DNA from: Candidatus Uhrbacteria bacterium
Lineage (GTDB): Bacteria > Patescibacteriota > Patescibacteriia > UBA9934
Assembly (NCBI GenBank): GCA_943354605.1
Contig: CALRCK010000001.1
Span: forward strand, 148,936 to 212,935
Length of the DNA: 64,000 nt
Reading direction: 5' to 3'
Of this stretch, positions 19,123 to 48,865 are shown one piece after another; position 1 is the first letter of the stretch; each line of letters begins with the position of its first letter. Both the position numbers and the translations under genes were made by a program. Below the pieces are notes generated by a model, which worked only from the letters and a program-made list of their open reading frames with translations, was not told the DNA's origin and did no database searches.

Positions 19123-19223
19123 GAGCGTGCTCCTGGTTCGGTTTGCCTAACGCCGCCCCGGGATGGGAACGGTCGCGAAAGAGTGTCATACTTTTGAGGT
19201 TTCGTCAACGACAAAAACGTGTA

Positions 19224-19342
19224 GGGGTTTCTCATTTGTGACAATTTTCGGTGCGTATCAAGCAAATCTCGCGAGGCGTACTTTATGTGTACGTTGAGCG
19301 AGTTTGCGATGATGCAAGCCGAAAATTGGCCAAATGAGGAAG
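19224..19342 (-). mobile_element. ~120-bp MITE-like element with terminal inverted repeats (copy A, reverse orientation)
   Basis: Aligns end to end with the copies at 30424-30544 and 41096-41215. Its TIRs are 'cttcctcatttggccaattttcg' and 'cgaaaattgtcacaaatgagaaaccc'. Confidence 0.7.
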
Positions 19343-19447
19343 ACCGAACGAAAACCCCCAGGATCATCGATTTTCGATAACCCTGGGGGTCGGTCGAGGC
19401 GTTTCGTCGCCTCGACCCGTTGCGAGCCGCACTGGAACGTACCGAAC

Positions 19448-29687: not shown

Positions 29688-29735
29688 ACCGAAGCGAGGC
29701 GTACTTCATGTGTACGTTGAGCGAGGACCGGAGGC
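29688..29735 (-). repeat. Core-only degenerate copy of the MITE-like element (copy B)
   Basis: 'gcgaggcgtacttcatgtgtacgttgagcgag' matches the palindromic core of copies A/C/D but has no TIRs. Confidence 0.5.
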
Positions 29736-30419: not shown

Positions 30420-30423
30420 GGAG

Positions 30424-30544
30424 GACTTTCTCATTTGGTCTATTTTCGACTCAGATCATCGGAAACTCGCTCAACGTACAGATGAAGTATGTCTCGCGAG
30501 CTTTCCTCGGTCTTCATCGAAACTAGACCAAATGAGAAAGTCCT
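30424..30544 (+). mobile_element. ~120-bp MITE-like element with ~27-bp terminal inverted repeats (copy C)
   Basis: 'ggactttctcatttggtctattttcga ... tcgaaactagaccaaatgagaaagtcc', with a palindromic core 'aaactcgctcaacgtacagatgaagtatgtctcgcgagcttt'. Starts 4 bp after the stop of the upstream ORF. Confidence 0.75.
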
Positions 30545-30573
30545 CGCATATTCAAGTATCGAGAAAACAAAAC

Positions 30574-39388: not shown

Positions 39389-41095
39389 ATGACCGCACGA
39401 AGTGTTGCACGGAAAGAGGTGTTTACCGCGCTCAAAAAGGCGTTGGGAAAAACATTCACCCTCACGGCGGACATGATTGTGTCGCCGCCAAAGCCGGGAT
39501 TCGGCGACTTGTGCTTTCCGTGTTTTACGTTGGCAAAGGGTATGAGTCGCAACCCGGCCGAGATCGCCACAGAACTTGCGGCAAAGATTGGGCCGTCGAA
39601 GATGATCAAGAAAATTACGTCCGCTGGGCCGTATGTGAACTTCACGTTTGACGACGAAGCGTTTGGTGCGCACGTGCTTGATGATGTCGCAAAGGCCAAG
39701 AAGCGATACGGTCGAGGCACCACAGGGAAGGGGAAGCGTGTGCTTGTAGAATACGCACAGCCAAATACACACAAAGAATTCCACGTTGGCCATTTGCGCA
39801 ACGCTATCTATGGTCAGTCGATCGTGAACCTTGTTTCGGCGAATGGATACGACACGATTGCTGCGGCGTATATTGGCGACATTGGGGCACACGTCGCAAA
39901 GGCGATTTGGGGATTCAAAAAGTTCTACGGCGAAGAGGCTGTTGCAAAGGAAAATCGCGCAAAGGTTCTTGGCGATGCGTACACGAAGGCGACACAATAT
40001 ATCGACGACCATCCAGACGCGAAGGAGGAGATTTCCGATATTCAACGAAAGCTCGAGGCTGAAGAGCAGCCTTGGCTTGGATTGTGGAAGGAAACGCGGG
40101 AGTGGAGTTTGGACGAGTTCCGAAAGGTGTTCGCCGAGCTCGGCGTGAAGCCGGGCGTATGGTACTTCGAAAGCGAAGTAGAGAAGCCGGGGAAAGAGCT
40201 TGTTCGGAAAATGCTGACCGATGGAATCGCAAAGAAGAGCGAGGGCGCGACGATTGTTGATCTTGCCGACGAAAATCTTGGTGTGTTCCTTGTATTAAAG
40301 ACCGATGGGTCGTCGTTGTACGCAACAAAAGATCTTGCGCTCGCGCTACAGAAAGATCGCGATTACGCCCCGGACCGGCAGATTTTTGTCATCGATGTGC
40401 GACAGTCGCTGTACATGAAGCAGCTGTTCGCAACATTGAAGCGCCTCGATTTCCATAAGGAGCTTGTGCATGTTGGCTACGAAATGGTGACATTGCCCGA
40501 TGGTGCGATGTCGTCGCGAAAGGGGAATATTGTTCGCTACGACGAGCTTCGCGATGCGATGTTCCAGACACTCGTGGATTCCACGAAGCTTCGTCATCCA
40601 GAATGGAAGGAAAAGGCGGTGAACACGAATGCGTTAACTCTTGCACTCGCGGCAATGAAATTCATGATGCTTCGCCAAGACCCGGGGAAAATTTTGGTCT
40701 TCGACATGGAAGAGGCCATGGCGACGGATGGATTCACGGGGCCGTATATTTTGTACACGATCGCTCGCATCAACAGTTTGCACGGAAAGACGAAGGTTTC
40801 CGCATTCCCGTTGGCATCGGCATTAACGGATCCCCAAGAGGTTCAGCTGTTGCGCAAAGTGTCGGAGTATCCCGACATTGTTGCACAGGCCGGAACGGAG
40901 ATGCGTCCATCGTTGGTGTGTTTGTACGCGTTTGAACTTGCGCAGATGTTCTCACGGTACTACGCCGAAGTGCACATGATTGACGAAGATCAACCATCGT
41001 TGACTGCCGCGAGACTCGGATTAGCGGATATTGTGAGCTCGACTTTAACGAACGCGATGGAGCTTCTGAATATTCAGGTTGTGAAGTCGATGTAG
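39389..41095 (+). CDS. argS: arginyl-tRNA synthetase
   Basis: 'EYAQPNTHKEFHVGHLRNAIYGQSI' and a C-terminal DALR-like anticodon-binding domain. Confidence 0.9.
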   Translation: MTARSVARKEVFTALKKALGKTFTLTADMIVSPPKPGFGDLCFPCFTLAKGMSRNPAEIATELAAKIGPSKMIKKITSAGPYVNFTFDDEAFGAHVLDDVAKAKKRYGRGTTGKGKRVLVEYAQPNTHKEFHVGHLRNAIYGQSIVNLVSANGYDTIAAAYIGDIGAHVAKAIWGFKKFYGEEAVAKENRAKVLGDAYTKATQYIDDHPDAKEEISDIQRKLEAEEQPWLGLWKETREWSLDEFRKVFAELGVKPGVWYFESEVEKPGKELVRKMLTDGIAKKSEGATIVDLADENLGVFLVLKTDGSSLYATKDLALALQKDRDYAPDRQIFVIDVRQSLYMKQLFATLKRLDFHKELVHVGYEMVTLPDGAMSSRKGNIVRYDELRDAMFQTLVDSTKLRHPEWKEKAVNTNALTLALAAMKFMMLRQDPGKILVFDMEEAMATDGFTGPYILYTIARINSLHGKTKVSAFPLASALTDPQEVQLLRKVSEYPDIVAQAGTEMRPSLVCLYAFELAQMFSRYYAEVHMIDEDQPSLTAARLGLADIVSSTLTNAMELLNIQVVKSM

Positions 41096-41215
41096 GACTT
41101 CCTCATTTGGTCTATTTTCGATTTGCGCCATCGCAAACTCGCTCAACGTACACATGAAGTACGTCTCGCGAGCTTTGCTCGTCGCGCATCGAAACTAGCC
41201 TCAAATGAGAAACTC
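41096..41215 (+). mobile_element. ~120-bp MITE-like element with TIRs (copy D)
   Basis: Begins at the base after the argS stop with 'ggacttcctcatttggtctattttcga ... tcgaaactagcctcaaatgagaaactcc'. The core is near-identical to copy C. Confidence 0.75.
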
Positions 41216-41256
41216 CTATAATCTAGCCTATAATCAGTTATTATCTTGAAATCTTT

Positions 41257-43823: not shown

Positions 43824-45446
43824 CTATTTGCGCGGATGGTGAAATGGTAGACACGCCAGCTTGAGGGGCTGGTGGCCGCAAGGTCGTGGAGGTTCGAGTC
43901 CTCTTCCGCGCACCAATACAGAACTCAACGGCTTTTTCAAAGCCAGAAGGTGGGACGCGCGAAGCGCGTCCCACTGATTTCCCCCCATTTTTCCAAACGA
44001 ATTTGGAGCACCGCCTTCGGCGGTGCGCACTGTTTTTTCGCCAAGAAGCAGGTTCGAGCCAAAGATTTCTTTGGCAACGACCTTTTTCGCAAAAGGGTTG
44101 CTATCCCGTGCGATTCTACTTAGATTTTGAGCGTCTTTTATCCACTCCTTCATCGGTTCGAGCCAATCATTTTGCTTTTGTAGAAGTGAAGATATTTTCT
44201 CTTCCAGCGACTTCTTTGTAAATAACAACTTTGATTTTTCAGCACGATATATTTCTTGTTCAATAACTTGGTCTAAATAGCCGTCAAGAAGTCGCTGGAG
44301 CTTCGCTTCAATATTTTTGATTTCTTTTTTCACTTCTTCTACAAAAGCAGAATTAGACTGGGCAGATTTTTTGTGGTCTTGCAGAGCAAGACGATTTAGT
44401 TCTTCCGCCCAGTCTGGTGGCAAAGAAACTGATTTGATAAGTGATGATAGCTGTTTGTCTAATTCCTCTTGGCGAATACAAGGTTCGGGACATTTTATAT
44501 TTTTGTTTTTCTTTGAACAATGGTAGTAAGTGTAATTATGCACATTTCCATTTTTCTGTTTCTTAACCTTGTATTCGCCAGTTATCATCATTCCGCATGA
44601 GGCGCAAGAAATTAGTCCACAAAAAGGTTGAGGTTCATTTTTAGATTTTCTGTCAGGTACACCGCGAAGTTTCAAAATTTCTTGCGCCTTATCAAACAGT
44701 TTCTTTGACACAATTGGCTCGTACTTTCCCTCATGGCGTTCACCGCCATATTTGAACAAACCGATGTAAAAAGGATTGGAAAGAATAAAAGACGCTCTAG
44801 TTTTGGAGATTATCTTTCCGCCTCTCGAAACGATTCCATTTTTCGCCAAAAAGTTTGAGATGTCTTCTAATCTACTTTCACCTTTCGCGTATTTCTCAAA
44901 AGCCAAGCGAATGACGCGAGATTTTTTCTTGTCCACTACGACAGATTTTGTGCGAGAGTCGTTGATATACCCCACTGGCGCTTGGCTTGGATAATCGCCA
45001 TTACGAACTTTTTGGCGAAGCCCTCGTTTCGTGTTTTCGGAAAGAGAATCTACATAGTATTTGCTTTGCCCAAAGGCGATGTTGAGCATAAATTTTCCTT
45101 GTGAAGTGTTTTCACACCAAAAAGTTGGAAATTTCAATATCGCCAAATGCCCGCAATCCAAAAGATAAATTATTCGTCCACCGTCCACAGAATTGCGCGC
45201 CAAGCGATCCGGATGCCAAGCAAGGATAGCATTTGCATCGCCGTTTTCAATACGCGAAATCATTTTATTAAACACTGGACGACCAGGAATTTTAGCCGAT
45301 TGTTTTTCAATCAATTCTTCGGCGATATGCAAACCCTCTTGCTTGGCATACGCGCGCAATTCGGTGAGTTGGGCGTCAATAGATAAAACCTGCTTGTCCT
45401 CAACATCGGTGGACTTGCGGGCATACAAAAAGAATTTTTGTTCCAT
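43824..45446 (-). CDS. large serine recombinase (resolvase/invertase N-domain + recombinase domain + zinc ribbon)
   Basis: 'FFLYARKSTDVEDKQVLSIDAQ' catalytic Ser region, 'LAWHPDRLARN', and 'CGLISCASCGMMI...YYHCSKK' Cys cluster. I chose the start at 'MEQKFF' (45446). The frame stays open through IR1-L and antisense across tRNA-Leu, so the natural C-terminus is uncertain. Confidence 0.75.
   Translation of the reverse strand: MEQKFFLYARKSTDVEDKQVLSIDAQLTELRAYAKQEGLHIAEELIEKQSAKIPGRPVFNKMISRIENGDANAILAWHPDRLARNSVDGGRIIYLLDCGHLAILKFPTFWCENTSQGKFMLNIAFGQSKYYVDSLSENTKRGLRQKVRNGDYPSQAPVGYINDSRTKSVVVDKKKSRVIRLAFEKYAKGESRLEDISNFLAKNGIVSRGGKIISKTRASFILSNPFYIGLFKYGGERHEGKYEPIVSKKLFDKAQEILKLRGVPDRKSKNEPQPFCGLISCASCGMMITGEYKVKKQKNGNVHNYTYYHCSKKNKNIKCPEPCIRQEELDKQLSSLIKSVSLPPDWAEELNRLALQDHKKSAQSNSAFVEEVKKEIKNIEAKLQRLLDGYLDQVIEQEIYRAEKSKLLFTKKSLEEKISSLLQKQNDWLEPMKEWIKDAQNLSRIARDSNPFAKKVVAKEIFGSNLLLGEKTVRTAEGGAPNSFGKMGGNQWDALRASHLLALKKPLSSVLVRGRGLEPPRPCGHQPLKLACLPFHHPRK
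43830..43915 (+). tRNA. tRNA-Leu (anticodon GAG), type II, CCA encoded. Its 3' end is the junction of an inserted element.
   Basis: gcgcgga|tg|gtg|aaatggtaga|cac|g|ccagc|uuGAGgg|gctgg|long variable arm|gaggttcgagtcctc|ttccgcgc|a|cca. Confidence 0.8.
43909..44057 (+). repeat. IR1-L: ~150-bp inverted repeat (left copy) containing three GC hairpins, including gcaccgcc-UUCG-ggcggtgc
   Basis: Nearly identical, in reverse complement, to 45514-45661. Confidence 0.8.
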
Positions 45447-45513
45447 AGAGGGATTATAGCAAAAATTCTTTTTGTTGGGCAAATCCTTTTTTGAATTTGT
45501 ATCGCACGGGATT

Positions 45514-45661
45514 TCGAACCTGCTTCTTGGCGAAAAAACAGTGCGCGTCGCCGAAGGCGACGCTCCGAATTCGTTTGGAAAAATGGGGGGAAATCAGTGG
45601 GACGCGCTTCGCGCGTCCCACCTTCTGGCTTTGAAAAAGCCGTTGAGTTCTGTATTGGTGC
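45514..45661 (-). repeat. IR1-R: inverted copy of IR1
   Basis: Reverse complement of 43909-44057, with one point difference plus two compensatory base-pair swaps in the UUCG hairpin. Confidence 0.8.
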
Positions 45662-45970
45662 CTTTACTATACCAAGTTAGAACCTATTTTCAAAATAAAA
45701 TATCATAGTGTTTCCCGCGCGCTAAAGCGCCACCACGCGAAGCGTGGTGCTTCTGCTGAAGCAGAAGTGCGGGAAAACGCTCTGCACTCCGCCACAATGT
45801 TTTGGGGGCAAAGGAGGCGGAGTGCAGAAATGCGGAACGCGAGCGAAATTTTGCGAAATGCTGGGGGTTTGGGGGAAAGTATTTCGCAAAATTCGCTTCG
45901 CGTGCTTCCTGATTTTTTGGCGACAGAATTGCGGGGTAAAATTGTTCAAATTCGGATTTTTTGATATAAT
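45656..45970 (+). repeat. IR2-L: ~313-bp perfect inverted repeat (left copy) ending in an inward-facing promoter
   Basis: Exact reverse-complement match to 48518-48830. Contains hairpins ccacgcg/cgcgtgg, cttctgc/gcagaag and ctgcactccgcc/ggcggagtgcag. Confidence 0.85.
45942..45970 (+). promoter_or_regulatory. sigma70-like promoter TTGTTC-N17-TATAAT driving the HD-hydrolase gene (inside IR2-L)
   Basis: Perfect -10 and a 17-nt spacer, with the ATG 13 nt downstream. Confidence 0.55.
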
Positions 45971-45982
45971 GTTTTTGATATT

Positions 45983-46576
45983 ATGAAGTTTACTATCAAA
46001 GTTATTAATGCGATTAGCCAAGCAGCGATTTGGCATAAAGACCAAGTTCGCAAGGACTTTGAAGAAACGCCTTATATTGCGCATCCATTTTCTGTAATGC
46101 TGACCCTTTTGGAATTTACAAATGATGAAGATGTTTTAATCGCTTCATTATTCCATGATGTTTTAGAAGATGTAAATCTAAAACTTGCTGAAATTATAGA
46201 AAAAGAATATGGCTCCAAGGTTATAAAAATTGTAAAAGCATTGAGCGAAGACAAAGATCCTGAAAAACAAACTGATGCCAAAGCCACATGGCGCTCGAGA
46301 AAATTAGGATATTTAGAACATCTTAAACTTGCTCCGAAGGAGGTCCTTTTGATAAGCTGTGCGGACAAGCTAGACAATTACCATACGCTTGCCAACACCA
46401 TCGAAAATTACGGCTTCAATATAGCATTAAAAAATTTTAATGCTCCGCTCAAAGATCAATTATGGTTTGCTGATGAAATAATAGAAATTTTCAAGAACCG
46501 TCTACATGGTCATCCACTGGTCAATCGTCTTTCGCAAATAATCAATCACATCAAAATCCTATCAAATACTCATTAA
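45983..46576 (+). CDS. small alarmone hydrolase (SpoT/RelA-like HD-domain (p)ppGpp hydrolase, SAH)
   Basis: 'PYIAHPFSV...LFHDVLEDV...VKALSEDKD...RKLGYLEHL...CADKLDNYHTL' parallels the RelA/SpoT HD hydrolase motifs (HPL.V, HDVVED, VTK, RKM, KLADRLHN). AT-rich codon usage. Confidence 0.65.
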   Translation: MKFTIKVINAISQAAIWHKDQVRKDFEETPYIAHPFSVMLTLLEFTNDEDVLIASLFHDVLEDVNLKLAEIIEKEYGSKVIKIVKALSEDKDPEKQTDAKATWRSRKLGYLEHLKLAPKEVLLISCADKLDNYHTLANTIENYGFNIALKNFNAPLKDQLWFADEIIEIFKNRLHGHPLVNRLSQIINHIKILSNTH

Positions 46577-46887
46577 TTAATTTCAGAATCTAATTTTTCT
46601 TTAGCCTTTGCAAAATCCACCATTGTTTTTTCCTCAGGCAAACTGCCATAATATAACCTTGTATATTCATCAATTATTTCTTGGCCTTCGCTTCCGTTTA
46701 GATCTTTCCCTTGTATGTCTTGGCGCCAATAAAGCTCAACAAATTTTTGATAATCAAACGGTTCCTTATTGTAAGGATTTTCATTAATTAACTTATCCAA
46801 GCTCGCTTTTTTTTCTTCTCTAATTTTCTTATAAATCATATTCTGGTCTTCTGGGGATATAAAGTTTGTTTTTTCATTCATAGACAT
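46573..46887 (-). CDS. hypothetical protein (last gene of the zeta-like operon)
   Basis: 104-aa Lys/Glu-rich ORF in AT-rich cargo. Confidence 0.35.
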   Translation of the reverse strand: MSMNEKTNFISPEDQNMIYKKIREEKKASLDKLINENPYNKEPFDYQKFVELYWRQDIQGKDLNGSEGQEIIDEYTRLYYGSLPEEKTMVDFAKAKEKLDSEIN

Positions 46888-46916
46888 AATTAGTATTCTT
46901 AAATTTAATTATAATA

Positions 46917-48332
46917 TTATTGCGCTTTACTATCAAGAGCCACGCCGATAGTTTTACCTAAATATTGTCGTAAAGTTTCTGCTGTTTTTTCTGCAAATTG
47001 TTGTGATTTTTCATCGAAATATGTCGCTGTAAAATTTTGTATGTATTCTTCTGTGATTACAGTATTGTTGATCCTTTCTATCTCTTCTTCCGGTTCTTCA
47101 ATTGATTGGCCGGCTAAATTCTCTCTACCCTCAATAATTCTAACTTTTCCAGCTTCTTCATCCCACACGGCGACTTCAACGGATTGTCTTAATTCCTTGT
47201 CATAAGCCATTAAAACATATCCATTGACTAACTGCGGATTATCATCTAAAGATTTATGTTGGACCTCACGATTTCCTCTAATCCCTCGAAATCCCTGCGC
47301 CACACCATCAAAGGCTATGTTTGGATCGGCGCCTCCCTTTTCACGTTCCAAAACTCTTACAGCGGAAAGCTCGAGCGGAACATCAATATCCATAATTGCA
47401 ATCTTACGGCCAGTTTCCTTAGCACTTTCAATCATTTCTTCTATGTCCGCATGCTCATTCATTAATTTATCGAAAACTACCGATGTATCTGCGCTAGATA
47501 CTTCTTTTTTAACAGCTCTTCCCAACATGGTACTTTCAGCATGAACTTGAGTAGACGATAAATTGCCTTTTTCTTTGAGCGGTCCCTTGAAAACATCTGG
47601 CGCCAATGAGCCGCTTGGTTGTCCTTTTTCATCTAAAATGCCTTTAAACATCTCATGCCCCCTGCGAAGAGCGGTTGTTTTACCTGCCCCGGGAGATCCG
47701 CGTAAAGCAAAAATTGTTGGGGGAGGAATTCTAGGGTTTTCTCTTTCGAGCCTCCTAGATAAATCCAAGGCCTGTTGAGTGTTTTCTCTTTTCAATCGTT
47801 CGTGTAATGACCGTCTACCATCCCAATTTTCAGGATTATCGTAGATTGTGCTTCTTTCTTTCTTAGACAATCCTGTCGTATCAACAAGGCAAAAAACCTT
47901 AGATGTATCTATATTTGGGTCTCTTGATAATAATTCAATGTTTTTATCATAACCTTCTTCACTTCTATGGCCTTCTTGGCTTGATGTAGGTTCTCCCGCG
48001 TCCGTTATTTCTCTAATTTTCCCCACTTCTTCGCCTGCAAGTTGCGTAGCTTCTGTTTGTATTTCATTCAGTTTTCCATCAAGCCCTTGTTCCTGCCGAA
48101 CGGCTGATAACATATCGGGAGATACACTCATGCTTTGAGATGATAACTCAATTCTCTGTTGCGCTTCCGGCAAAACATTGGCTGTTTGTTCAGCAATATT
48201 TTTTTCGGCGGAAACAGCGAATTGTTCTACCTGTTTGTTGCTGACCTCCGCCTCAACGGCTTCTTCCGGTGACCTGATTTCTGTTTCTGCTGTTTCTATT
48301 TTAGCTTGGGGTGAAAAACGTTCTGTTTTCAT
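46917..48332 (-). CDS. zeta-toxin-family P-loop kinase with long acidic N-terminal extension
   Basis: 'PTIFALRGSPGAGKTTAL' Walker A, followed by 'LAPDVFKGPL' (zeta/PezT-like Asp region) and 'IAIMDIDVPLELS'. The N-terminal ~190 aa are acidic and low-complexity. Confidence 0.55.
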   Translation of the reverse strand: MKTERFSPQAKIETAETEIRSPEEAVEAEVSNKQVEQFAVSAEKNIAEQTANVLPEAQQRIELSSQSMSVSPDMLSAVRQEQGLDGKLNEIQTEATQLAGEEVGKIREITDAGEPTSSQEGHRSEEGYDKNIELLSRDPNIDTSKVFCLVDTTGLSKKERSTIYDNPENWDGRRSLHERLKRENTQQALDLSRRLERENPRIPPPTIFALRGSPGAGKTTALRRGHEMFKGILDEKGQPSGSLAPDVFKGPLKEKGNLSSTQVHAESTMLGRAVKKEVSSADTSVVFDKLMNEHADIEEMIESAKETGRKIAIMDIDVPLELSAVRVLEREKGGADPNIAFDGVAQGFRGIRGNREVQHKSLDDNPQLVNGYVLMAYDKELRQSVEVAVWDEEAGKVRIIEGRENLAGQSIEEPEEEIERINNTVITEEYIQNFTATYFDEKSQQFAEKTAETLRQYLGKTIGVALDSKAQ

Positions 48333-48499
48333 AGTTGCTTTAATGATTTTCTAAGCTCGTCCAATTTTTTCTCTTTGAGCGTGTCTAAAAAATCGGCGAC
48401 GATATCATCGCGCTTTTTCTTAAGCACGGAAAATTTGGCTGCAAATTCCGTCACTATTTTCTCAATTTCTTTTTTCTTTTGTAAATTTTTATTGGTCAT
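48329..48499 (-). CDS. 56-aa helical ORF translationally coupled (ATGA overlap) to the zeta-like kinase; candidate epsilon-like antitoxin
   Basis: Not in the supplied ORF track (<60 aa). Translated by hand it reads 'MTNKNLQKKKEIEKIVTEFAAKFSVLKKKRDDIVADFLDTLKEKKLDELRKSLKQL*'. Its stop overlaps the kinase ATG. Confidence 0.35.
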   Translation of the reverse strand: MTNKNLQKKKEIEKIVTEFAAKFSVLKKKRDDIVADFLDTLKEKKLDELRKSLKQL

Positions 48500-48517
48500 A
48501 TTCTATATATTGAGTCT

Positions 48518-48830
48518 ATTATATCAAAAAATCCGAATTTGAACAATTTTACCCCGCAATTCTGTCGCCAAAAAATCAGGAAGCACGCGAAGCGAATTTT
48601 GCGAAATACTTTCCCCCAAACCCCCAGCATTTCGCAAAATTTCGCTCGCGTTCCGCATTTCTGCACTCCGCCTCCTTTGCCCCCAAAACATTGTGGCGGA
48701 GTGCAGAGCGTTTTCCCGCACTTCTGCTTCAGCAGAAGCACCACGCTTCGCGTGGTGGCGCTTTAGCGCGCGGGAAACACTATGATATTTTATTTTGAAA
48801 ATAGGTTCTAACTTGGTATAGTAAAGGCAC
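48518..48830 (-). repeat. IR2-R: inverted copy of IR2 carrying the mirror promoter (ATTATA...GAACAA on the plus strand at 48518-48546) reading leftwards
   Basis: Exact reverse complement of 45656-45970. Confidence 0.85.
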
Positions 48831-48835
48831 CATCG

Positions 48836-48865
48836 AAAACGAAGCCTGACCGGGCTTCGTTTTTG
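48836..48865. terminator. bidirectional hairpin terminator just outside IR2-R
   Basis: 'aaaacgaagcc-tgaccg-ggcttcgtttt' flanked by A-run and T-run. Confidence 0.5.

Follow-up and report, generated by a model that had tools for sequence, protein, structure and literature searches.

Why should the two copies of a hairpin, carried by the two arms of one inverted repeat, differ in sequence in a way that leaves both of them paired? The question is raised by IR1, a long inverted repeat on either side of a recombinase gene body in a 64,000-nt stretch of a Candidatus Uhrbacteria contig (CALRCK010000001.1), hereafter the window. The repeat and its hairpins are as follows.

43910..44057, plus strand: IR1-L, which forms the P' arm of attL and overlaps the final ~50 codons (aa 464-512) of the minus-strand recombinase ORF
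45514..45661, minus strand: IR1-R, a second P' arm, between the P-arm promoter and the recombinase gene, without the gene body
43930..43944, plus strand: hairpin H1, ggcttt-ttc-aaagcc, from the fold; mirror copy at 45627-45641
43950..43974, plus strand: hairpin H2, 11-bp stem, gtgggacgcgc-gaa-gcgcgtcccac; mirror copy at 45597-45621
43993..44006, plus strand: hairpin H3, ccaaa-cgaa-tttgg, holding the fifth difference between copies (44004); mirror copy at 45565-45578
44008..44026, plus strand: left copy of hairpin H4, GCACCGCC-TTC-GGCGGTGC
44027..44038, plus strand: tail after left H4, gcacTGTTTTTT, with a T-run at 44033-44038; the mirror T-run is at 45533-45538, minus strand
45545..45563, minus strand: right copy of hairpin H4, GCGTCGCC-TTC-GGCGACGC, then gcacTGTTTTTT

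The arms of IR1 are 148 nt long and 97% complementary, as near-identical as the initial annotation had described them, with the left start moved from 43909 to 43910. Compared in register, they differ at five positions: T/C at 44004 and AC/GT versus GT/AC in the stem of H4 (44010-11 with 44023-24). Four of the five are thus two compensated base pairs, and the claim that these stem changes preserve pairing is correct: both retain Watson-Crick pairing, and the minimum-energy structure of each copy includes H4. The hairpin itself had been misread as a 20-bp palindrome around a 4-bp centre with a UUCG tetraloop, from a string with one g too many. In both copies H4 is 19 nt, with an 8-bp stem (7 G-C pairs) and a 3-nt loop, UUC (or C-UUC-G if the last pair opens), and placing UUCG in the loop breaks the stem register. 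A real A-UUCG-U loop adjoins H4, in H3, which reads CCAAA-TTCG-TTTGG on the recombinase-sense strand. H2, reported earlier as a second hairpin in each copy, was found in both.

H4 sites among homologues fall in two positional classes, 5 nt apart, owing to which RNAalifold on all 54 same-length copies gave no single H4 consensus; we counted class 1 separately and scored all copies by a position-free hairpin count. In class 1 (16 distinct homologues), 97.7% of cells pair, against 36-57% in slid controls; both sides have changed at three of the eight pairs, and none of 500 shuffles reached the observed score. A perfect stem of at least 6 bp is present at the H4 site in 154 of 183 distinct IR1 copies, versus 10 of 183 shuffled ones. 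The arms take 25 different sequences across the family and vary even among relatives whose recombinases are 70-94% identical. The covariation check therefore agrees with the earlier proposal of selection on secondary structure, and conservation of pairing rather than sequence at H4 supports such selection as the probable constraint.

Compensatory changes occur at 6 of the 11 pairs of H2, and at least 9 perfect base pairs are found in 147 of the 183 copies; a scan of the IR1 copies for U-tracts gave no clear one after H2 on either strand. For H1, the share of paired cells is 97.2% in the tRNA sense, where U.G pairs are numerous, and 82.1% in the recombinase sense. H3, the conservation of which is weaker than that of the other hairpins, favors the recombinase sense, whereas H1 favors the tRNA sense; in its commonest sequence class, H3 can also pair in another way, all Watson-Crick but around a longer loop, so the apparent strand preference of H3 is weak. 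As judged from the homologues, we show that IR1 carries four hairpins in which pairing, not sequence, is conserved. The minimum-energy fold also contains a fifth hairpin, CTGTTTTTT-CGCC-AAGAAGCAG (44030-44051), which we rejected because its pairing is lost in relatives (GGCGAAAAA versus CAAAACAAA, and other variants); we treat that stretch as the U-tract. An Rfam scan returned only three tRNAs above threshold and no family for IR1. A match to NmsRb over 43947-44034 was below threshold (30.4 bits against 52) and was discarded. Wobble states at H4 showed no bias (GT 8, AC 12), and the H2 and H4 stems are almost purely Watson-Crick, so an RNA strand cannot be chosen from wobble pairs.

IR1 belongs to a larger arrangement, as follows.

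43824..45446, minus strand: large serine recombinase ORF, 540 aa from ATG, running through IR1-L and the core into tRNA antisense
43830..43915, plus strand: tRNA-Leu(gag) gene (ARAGORN, Rfam tRNA, junction alignment)
45453..45482, minus strand: promoter-like site, TTGCCC-18-TATAAT, directly upstream of the recombinase ATG, by consensus match only
45656..45661, minus strand: GCACCA, core of an internal, inverted, intact attP (P arm, core and P' arm)
45656..45970, minus strand: IR2-L, comprising the P arm of the internal attP and additional structured sequence; its 315 nt match the complement of 48518-48832 at 100%
45983..48499, both strands: cargo segment, with an HD-domain protein (plus), a 104-aa ORF (minus), a 471-aa Zeta-toxin/AAA_33-like protein (minus) and a 56-aa ORF (minus)
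48518..48832, plus strand: IR2-R, which forms the P arm of attR and has the core GCACCA at its end (48827-48832)
48834..48865, plus strand: the tRNA-Leu gene's own terminator, a 14-bp stem plus TTTTTG, on the B' side and now ~4.9 kb from the tRNA

We show at the sequence level that 43916-48832 is an island of ~4.9 kb at the 3' end of tRNA-Leu(gag), with IR1 as the P' arm of its attachment site; we show, too, that IR1 is the 3' coding end of the island's large serine recombinase gene. The B arm of the integration site is supplied by the 3' part of the tRNA gene, which ends in the six-base shared core, GCACCA (43910-43915). That core occurs three times: in attL (tRNA plus IR1-L), in the intact inverted attP (IR1-R plus IR2-L) and in attR (IR2-R plus the tRNA's own terminator). 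In a three-junction alignment, the left half of attP is that of attR, the right half is that of attL, and GCACCA is common to all. With the arms read by eye, the dyad would center on the CA of GG-CA-CC, and the minimal core common to the family is CAC. The motif GGTTC is set 4 nt farther out on the P side of the core than on the B side, which fits the attP/attB half-site offset rule of large serine recombinases. The inverted duplication of IR1 follows from the second attP that the element retains ahead of its recombinase gene. Both att arms are packed with hairpins, and IR2 contains a four-way junction. G+C is low in the cargo segment and island (0.33-0.44 versus ~0.52), and a Pfam domain search of the cargo found no replication or transfer genes.

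Related loci repeat this layout, with IR1 pairs and, where the flank allows, IR2 pairs. Both copies of IR1 are present in 132 related elements. Of these, 66 have a P arm next to the upstream copy and a tRNA next to the downstream one, and the abutting tRNAs have many different anticodons. We show that a second inverted attP ahead of the recombinase gene is the family norm. Four loci (L007, L023, L073 and L147) have tRNAs on both sides of the recombinase, and one contig (L032/L157) has P arms on both sides, as in a circle, although it is incomplete. Exact-protein look-ups of both genes flanking the island recovered neither an empty site nor a circular form, only island-bearing or repeat-broken contigs; an empty-site junction would read CGCGCACCA joined directly to TCGAAAACGAAGCC. 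Many contigs end inside IR1 or IR2, as the long inverted repeats interrupt short-read assembly at these loci. A literature search found no description of this element family.

The island shares its three-domain recombinase with phiC31, Bxb1, A118, TP901-1 and SPbeta SprA, and it shares with large serine recombinase systems a short common core with P/P' and B/B' arms and hybrid attL and attR sites. Unlike phiC31-type systems, the family inserts into a wide range of tRNA genes, at their 3' ends (around C72-A73-CCA); its attP is inside the recombinase's own 3' coding end, so that the C-terminal peptide would be exchanged upon integration; a second, inverted attP is retained; and the arms, of 148 and 315 nt, are full of covarying hairpins. 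Genomic islands and prophages that target tRNAs likewise insert at the 3' end and restore it, and they are low in G+C with small cargo, as here, including a toxin-like gene. They mostly use tyrosine integrases; in this island, a serine recombinase is used, identity with the tRNA is only ~6 bp, and the repeats are inverted rather than only direct.

These junctions bear on a suggestion in the initial annotation, that the H4 palindrome resembles a serine-recombinase crossover site; on this reading, the adjacent recombinase would bind or recombine there and would invert the segment between the IR1 copies. In favor of such a site, the palindrome is perfect and recurs in each arm of an inverted repeat flanking a recombinase gene, and relatives have the recombinase segment in either orientation with respect to a tRNA. 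The junctions, however, place the exchange at GCACCA at the tRNA 3' end, ~93 nt from H4, and the palindrome has an odd 3-nt center instead of a dinucleotide. Its arms change freely between relatives with closely similar recombinases, unlike a protein recognition site, which disfavors this reading further; we consider it highly improbable. A DNA invertase segment of the Hin/Gin type (an enzyme of ~190 aa acting on ~26-bp sites at the ends of short repeats) was also rejected: the recombinase has 540 aa with large-serine domains, and the repeats of 148 and 315 nt are att arms.

The recombinase contains the Pfam domains Resolvase (PF00239), Recombinase (PF07508) and Zn_ribbon_recom (PF13408), all over their cut-offs, and its relatives in the PDB are the A118 integrase and SPbeta SprA (coverage aa 50-416). 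R10 and S12 are invariant in 50 homologues. A first search returned more than 7,900 homologues, and all the named ones are Patescibacteria. The tail encoded by IR1 is absent from phage, plasmid and PDB relatives; phage and plasmid collections gave only relatives of <30% identity that end before it. Homologues end in tRNA-antisense peptides or in the P-arm peptide LLYQVRTYFQNK, and integration would swap the latter for a tRNA-antisense tail. IR1-R starts with TCGAACC (SNLLL), the same as in relatives.

The swap between copies changes G to D in the recombinase frame, as had been noticed, along with T to V (VRTAEGGAP versus VRVAEGDAP). IR1 copies are open and in frame in 204 of 207 cases, and codon-position entropy gives a third-position excess of 2-5 for the body of the gene, against 0.9-1.4 for the tail. 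The coding constraint on the tail thus appears to be one of frame only, with no sign of amino-acid-level constraint, in line with the earlier view that frame content is not what is conserved. The predicted structure of the tail (pLDDT 27-49) may lend this mild support, since the whole model is weak (mean pLDDT 61, with the catalytic domain also low).

A further possibility is that the compensated pairs serve no selected function and are by-products of template switching at hairpins, which corrects quasi-palindromes, combined with gene conversion between repeat copies and between elements. We compared between-copy differences per hairpin in each element, a count in which truncated copies inflate the number of "imperfect" hairpins. 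All five differences in the window lie within 21 of 148 nt, for which random placement gives ~5 × (21/148)^4 = 0.002 by our own calculation. The right-copy allele of H4 (GCGTCGCC...GGCGACGC plus CCG) is also that of the unrelated elements L011, L023 and L067, and two different perfect hairpin alleles within one element recur in several others (e.g., L003, L088, L105, L112 and L147). On this comparison, the five differences are a single 21-nt allele patch that is also present in other elements. Because the patch matches their allele, exchange of a pre-existing allele with a related element is, we infer, a more likely origin than a fresh double mutation in place; the two swaps between copies are therefore compensatory in their pairing, as first claimed, but did not probably arise where they stand. 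A third IR1 or P-arm copy that might have been the donor was looked for in the window, and none was found.

The imported patch is consistent with the by-product explanation, as are the mosaic distribution of hairpin modules among elements and the loop inversions: TTC flips to GAA between otherwise identical hairpin copies of one element in L026, L063 and L136, the same flip as in chloroplast small hairpin-loop inversions and quasi-palindrome correction. Loop inversion is a mutational side-effect only, and it leaves the conservation of the hairpin unexplained. In the absence of selection, a hairpin should decay or move, whereas H4 is kept at the same place, in its two positional classes, in those 154 of 183 copies with 25 unrelated arms, and the U-tract linked to it is kept through amino-acid replacements. 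We think it very unlikely that the hairpin lacks a selected function.

The linked U-tract may point to termination. H4 is the top terminator-like match in both copies, on the tRNA-sense strand, although the region holds 8 terminator-like sites versus 6.5 expected by chance. Read in the tRNA sense, H4 is followed by a U-tract (6 or more U per 8 nt, no further than 6 nt from the stem) in 132 of 154 copies, and no copy has one in the opposite sense; the remaining 22 copies, from a divergent clade, have the hairpin without the U-tract. Columns T131, T133 and T135 of the tail are invariant, and the A-run persists through GEK-to-QNK replacements. The strand that carries the U-tract is the one that would be read from the tRNA gene in attL or, in attP, from a predicted extended -10 promoter in the P arm.

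45666..45693, minus strand: P-arm promoter, TTGAAA-16-(TGn)TATAGT, by consensus match, directed across the core into IR1-R
48795..48822, plus strand: mirror copy of the P-arm promoter, TTGAAA-16-(TGn)TATAGT

This promoter is conserved in 82 of 97 distinct P arms and ends 3-5 nt before the core. We postulate, with somewhat better than even confidence, that H4 and its U-tract form a polar intrinsic terminator in the attachment-site arm, possibly aided by H2, that would insulate the recombinase gene and re-terminate the tRNA. The left copy would provide a new stop for the displaced tRNA gene and keep read-through transcripts of that gene from entering the recombinase gene in antisense. With the right copy, the IR1 stretch that separates the recombinase gene from the P-arm promoter would be a leader in which transcription terminates, leading to low expression. 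The same DNA would have to remain an open reading frame, and stem changes would therefore persist only as compensated pairs.

Intrinsic terminators resemble H4 in having a G+C-rich stem, which is 8 bp here, a short loop and a U-run downstream on one strand. Insulating terminators or hairpins at the ends of insertion sequences block outside transcription, and H4 likewise lies just inside the boundary, downstream of a strong external promoter (the tRNA gene). Unlike usual terminators, H4 is inside a translated frame on the opposite strand and is duplicated within a long inverted repeat, and its TTTTTT starts 7 nt after the stem, where textbook terminators have it closer. The opposed strand preferences of H1 and H3 also count against termination, and a terminator leaves the lengths of the duplicated arms (148 and 315 nt) and the retained spare attP unexplained. 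An RNA acting from one strand would normally tolerate G.U pairs, so the near-pure Watson-Crick stems of H2 and H4 may count against a one-strand RNA and indicate a DNA-level or two-strand constraint.

The hairpins could alternatively be the body of a regulatory small RNA or leader rather than a plain terminator. A transcript of ~130 nt from the P-arm promoter through IR1-R could base-pair with the recombinase mRNA at its 3' end, the part encoded by IR1-L, and the tRNA read-through transcript would be antisense to that mRNA in cis; recombinase levels would depend on such pairing or on attenuation in the leader, and the promoter would be repressed by recombinase occupying the internal attP. The conserved promoter just ahead of the core is consistent with this, as is H1, which pairs well only in the sense of that transcript; four covarying hairpins exceed what a terminator needs, and the geometry of the inverted repeat gives perfect complementarity. 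Yet there is no Rfam family, the loop flips between copies argue against specific loop-loop contacts, and this account overlaps the terminator, from which it is hard to tell apart by sequence alone. We regard it as possible but rather unlikely.

Palindromes acting as DNA hairpins or cruciforms would account for stems that are almost exclusively Watson-Crick and without strand bias. They might shape the recombination complex or, if uptake or transfer is single-stranded, fold single-stranded DNA (e.g., as second-strand priming sites). GAA loops closed by C-G, a DNA mini-hairpin motif of unusual stability, are frequent; the loop flips between the two copies of one element show that the arms interact at the DNA level, and hairpins fill both att arms, four-way junction included. 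Against this, large serine recombinases need only sites of ~40-50 bp and no accessory DNA structures, H4 is far from the core, the cargo encodes neither replication nor transfer functions, and a one-sided U-tract would have no role. We judge a DNA-level structure unlikely, and the polar terminator remains our preferred explanation of H4.

We also offer a bolder speculation, which we hold to be doubtful. If excised, the island would be a circle of two unique segments and two ~460-bp inverted repeats, each with a recombinase site and with the recombinase gene in one segment; such a circle is predicted here from the layout of the locus. The yeast 2-micron plasmid, with Flp/FRT in long inverted repeats, resembles it in layout only: the recombinase family differs, and no replication functions were found in the island. 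The element might be such a two-site integrating circle, in which the spare inverted attP, the hairpin-rich arms and the overlap of recombinase gene and crossover control direction and dosage without a separate directionality factor. The IR1 transcript would then be an antisense or leader RNA acting on the recombinase, and the spare attP would recombine with other tRNA genes, driving inversions between tRNA loci in Patescibacteria; no large serine recombinase is known to recombine attP with attP. Bolder still, the covarying structures in both arms, including the IR2 four-way junction, could be RNA partners of the recombinase.

What had looked like an RNA motif or a crossover site becomes a defined part of a mobile element, one of a very common family in Patescibacteria that takes the CCA end of many different tRNA genes as its target, and its recombinases are candidates for a tRNA-end-specific integration tool. 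If H4 is a terminator, a single stretch of DNA would keep the host tRNA gene functional and the element's own recombinase silent, acting simultaneously as a coding region, as an arm of the recombination site and as a signal for transcription. Rearrangements in the small genomes of Patescibacteria could arise from the spare site.

The inverted repeat IR1 was confirmed as two arms of 148 nt (43910-44057 and 45514-45661) that are 97% complementary. With both copies set in one orientation, five positions differ between them, all inside a stretch of 21 of the 148 nt (p ~0.002 under random placement, our own calculation).

Positions at which the IR1 copies differ
44004: T vs C
44010-11: AC vs GT
44023-24: GT vs AC, the complement of the change at 44010-11

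Hairpin H4 forms in both versions when the whole arm is folded to minimum energy (z = -6.4 and -5.2 for the two copies, relative to shuffled sequences), and the 11-bp hairpin of the initial annotation (H2) is present at 43950-43974 and 45597-45621. In the left copy, H4 reads GCACCGCC-TTC-GGCGGTGC (44008-44026); with 19 nt and a 3-nt loop, it is neither the cUUCGg tetraloop hairpin nor the 20-bp palindrome with a 4-bp center that had been described.

The open reading frame between the IR1 copies (45446 to 43824, minus strand) encodes a large serine recombinase with Resolvase, Recombinase, and Zn_ribbon_recom domains, the PDB relatives of which (A118 integrase and SPbeta SprA) cover amino acids 50 to 416. 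More than 7,900 homologues were found; among the best 120 (65 to 100% identity), every named one is from Patescibacteria. The IR1-encoded residues are present in homologues, whose C termini read ...KEIFGSNLLLGEKTVR-x7-NSFGKMGGNQWDALRASHLLALKKPLSSVLV and then continue either into a tRNA gene translated in antisense (GLEPP, GFEPS, GIEPT, and similar) or into xLLYQVRTYFQNK-stop. Both endings occur in the window: the recombinase runs into tRNA-Leu antisense, and a 78-codon ORF in IR1-R, the right copy, runs into ...PLLYQVRTYFQNKIS.

Judged from codon-position variability, protein sequence is not what is conserved in the IR1-encoded stretch. The ratio of entropy at third versus first and second codon positions is 2 to 5 in the gene body and 0.9 to 1.4 over amino acids 470 to 505 of the tail. 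The tail has low confidence in the predicted structure model, and no counterpart was found among phage, plasmid, and PDB relatives. The IR1 reading frame is kept (length a multiple of three and open in frame in 204 of 207 copies); stops interrupt the two remaining frames in 162 and 102 copies.

Hairpin pairing in IR1 is under selection. The proposal of selection on secondary structure held up: pairing is kept, changes are compensatory, and shuffled and slid controls fail. In the H4 class of the window (16 distinct sequences), 97.7% of cells are paired and three of eight pairs show double-sided changes (A-U, G-C, and C-G at one pair; C-G, U-A, and G-C at another). None of 500 shuffles reached its score, and slid controls were 36 to 57% paired. 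A second H4 class, GCGCGC-NN-GCGCGC, is offset by 5 nt. A perfect stem of 6 bp or longer occupies the H4 place in 154 of 183 distinct copies, compared with 10 of 183 shuffled copies (position-free count), and 25 different arm sequences occur there. H2 has compensatory changes at 6 of 11 pairs and a perfect stem of 9 bp or longer in 147 of the 183 copies and in no shuffle.

The H4 palindrome had also been likened to a serine-recombinase crossover site. Aligning the three junctions around GCACCA allowed attL, attP, and attR to be assigned.

Attachment-site junctions
attL, GCACCA 43910-15: tRNA-Leu to the left, IR1-L (left copy) to the right
attP, intact and inverted, GCACCA 45656-61: IR2-L (left copy of the second inverted repeat) to the left, IR1-R to the right
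attR, GCACCA 48827-32: IR2-R to the left, the tRNA's own terminator (48834-48865) to the right

Because all three share GCACCA, the exchange is placed at the tRNA 3' end, about 93 nt from H4, and not at the palindrome. GGTTC, from the tRNA T-loop region, also occurs in the P arm of the element, 4 nt further from the core. The segment 43916-48832 has a G+C content of 0.33 to 0.44 versus ~0.52 outside. The cargo may be a toxin-antitoxin or defense module: it encodes one HD-domain protein and one Zeta-toxin/AAA_33-like protein, besides two small ORFs.

Cargo genes
45983-46576 (+): HD_4-domain protein
46917-48332 (-): 471-aa protein, C-terminal half matching Zeta_toxin/AAA_33
Before and after the latter, kinase-like gene: small ORFs of 56 and 104 aa

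The hairpins differ in strand polarity. H2 and H4 are nearly all Watson-Crick, with no wobble bias; H1 (43930-43944) pairs at 97.2% in the tRNA sense versus 82.1% in the recombinase sense, and H3 (43993-44006) pairs better in the recombinase sense. H4 is the top terminator-like match in both IR1 copies. In the tRNA sense, GCAC-TGTTTTTT comes directly after it, and at least 6 U in 8 nt occur there in 132 of 154 copies, as against none in the recombinase sense. The A-run persists through a GEK-to-QNK replacement in the protein. The U-run begins 7 nt past the H4 stem, and a divergent clade is without it.

On the tRNA-sense strand, H4 always lies downstream of a strong start: the tRNA gene at attL and, at attP, a conserved predicted promoter in the P arm, TTGAAA-16-(TGn)TACAAT/TATAGT. 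A consensus match to this promoter is found in 82 of 97 distinct arms, ending 3 to 5 nt before the core.

Predicted P-arm promoters (TTGAAA/TTGGAA, 16 nt, TGn-TACAAT/TATAGT; near-consensus extended -10, firing across the crossover core)
45666-45693 (-)
48795-48822 (+)

Given this promoter, the conserved C-terminal peptide LLYQVRTYFQNK may simply be its antisense translation. From the polar U-tract and the strong start upstream on the same strand, we infer that H4 and its U-tract form a polar terminator. The left copy would give the tRNA gene, its own terminator now 4.9 kb away, a new point of termination and would protect the recombinase against antisense read-through. Through the right copy, IR1 would become a terminated leader that separates the recombinase gene from the P-arm promoter; that gene has a promoter-like site of its own (45482-45453).

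We retrieved 160 related loci (individual loci are designated L003, L011, and so on) and compared each with itself for repeats. An IR1 pair surrounds the recombinase in most of them, and, given a flank of sufficient length, an adjoining IR2 pair encloses variable cargo. IR1 invariably has its inner boundary at TCGAACC, within codons for SNLLL. Junction patterns were counted in 132 elements with both IR1 copies.

Sequences abutting the IR1 copies
Upstream P arm, downstream tRNA: 66 of 132 elements
Upstream contig end, downstream tRNA: 18 of 132
Upstream tRNA, downstream contig end, other sequence, or second tRNA: 11 of 132
P arm at both copies: two loci, L032 and L157, apparently one contig

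By these counts the window layout is the family norm. The abutted tRNAs include Arg, Val, Leu, Gly, Ile, Met, Lys, Glu, Tyr, Phe, Ala, and Thr, among others. In 4 of the 11 tRNA-upstream elements (L007, L023, L073, and L147), tRNAs abut both copies; L030, L041, L061, L141, and L156 also have one at the upstream copy. The recombinase module of some relatives lies between two different tRNA genes or opposite in orientation to the tRNA, and in both L023 and L147 one IR1 copy is of a clearly different sequence type from the other. These observations suggest rearrangement between tRNA loci or between elements.

The two compensatory swaps reported between the window's copies do preserve pairing, yet they probably arose earlier in the family. 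L011, L023, and L067 carry an allele identical to that of the right copy (GCGTCGCC...GGCGACGC plus CCG), and the allele of the left copy is the most common. Two different perfect hairpin alleles occur within one element elsewhere (e.g., L003, L088, L105, L112, and L147), and mosaicism between elements is visible in the IR1 sequences. On this evidence, a single exchanged patch best accounts for the five differences in the window; no donor copy was found in the 64,000-nt window. In L026, L063, and L136, the copies differ by a loop flip (TTC vs GAA) in H2. Such flips, small inversions bounded by the stem arms, occur within an element or between close relatives and are also seen in otherwise identical hairpins in L078 and between L043 and L024 (IR2 hairpin).

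A terminator explains neither the retention of a spare inverted attP nor such long arms. Possibly these features are kept for autorepression, with the recombinase binding at the promoter of its own gene, for integration in either orientation, or for recombination with other tRNA genes. IR2 contains a four-way junction, for which RNAalifold gave 30 pairs, 17 with compensatory changes (15 sequences).

Four-way junction (compact, cloverleaf-like; outer stem and three hairpins with 3- to 4-nt loops; begins where the attP-type recombinase tail has its stop codon)
45708-45781 (+)
48707-48780 (-): mirror copy

It recurs in the P arms of L003, L004, L020, L024, L031, L042, L043, L044, L048, L064, L085, L094, L101, and L129 and had no match in Rfam. 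Further IR2 hairpins lie beyond it, among them ctgcactccgcc...ggcggagtgcag and one long stem (45837-45903). Searches for these elements returned no Rfam family and no description in the literature. Weak extra complementarity (28 nt, 75%, including ATCCCGTGCGAT) links 45494-45521, just inside IR1-R, with 44094-44121, ~45 nt inside IR1-L; the IR1-R flank appears to derive from a recombinase 3' end that underwent an internal deletion. A separate repeat family unrelated to IR1 and IR2 (19222-19345, 29694-29725, 30421-30545, and 41094-41218; 60 to 125 nt, 72 to 97% identity, both orientations, one copy a 59-nt palindrome) adjoins tRNA-Ile, tRNA-Val, and the end of the arginyl-tRNA synthetase gene.

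Contig ends inside IR1 or IR2 are very frequent across independent assemblies. L161, L163, and L164 are contigs that break in IR1 or IR2, and contigs from other samples with the window's island are among such cases. Repeats of this type would be expected to break short-read assemblies, and elements bearing IR1 and IR2 are systematic assembly breakpoints in Patescibacteria MAGs.
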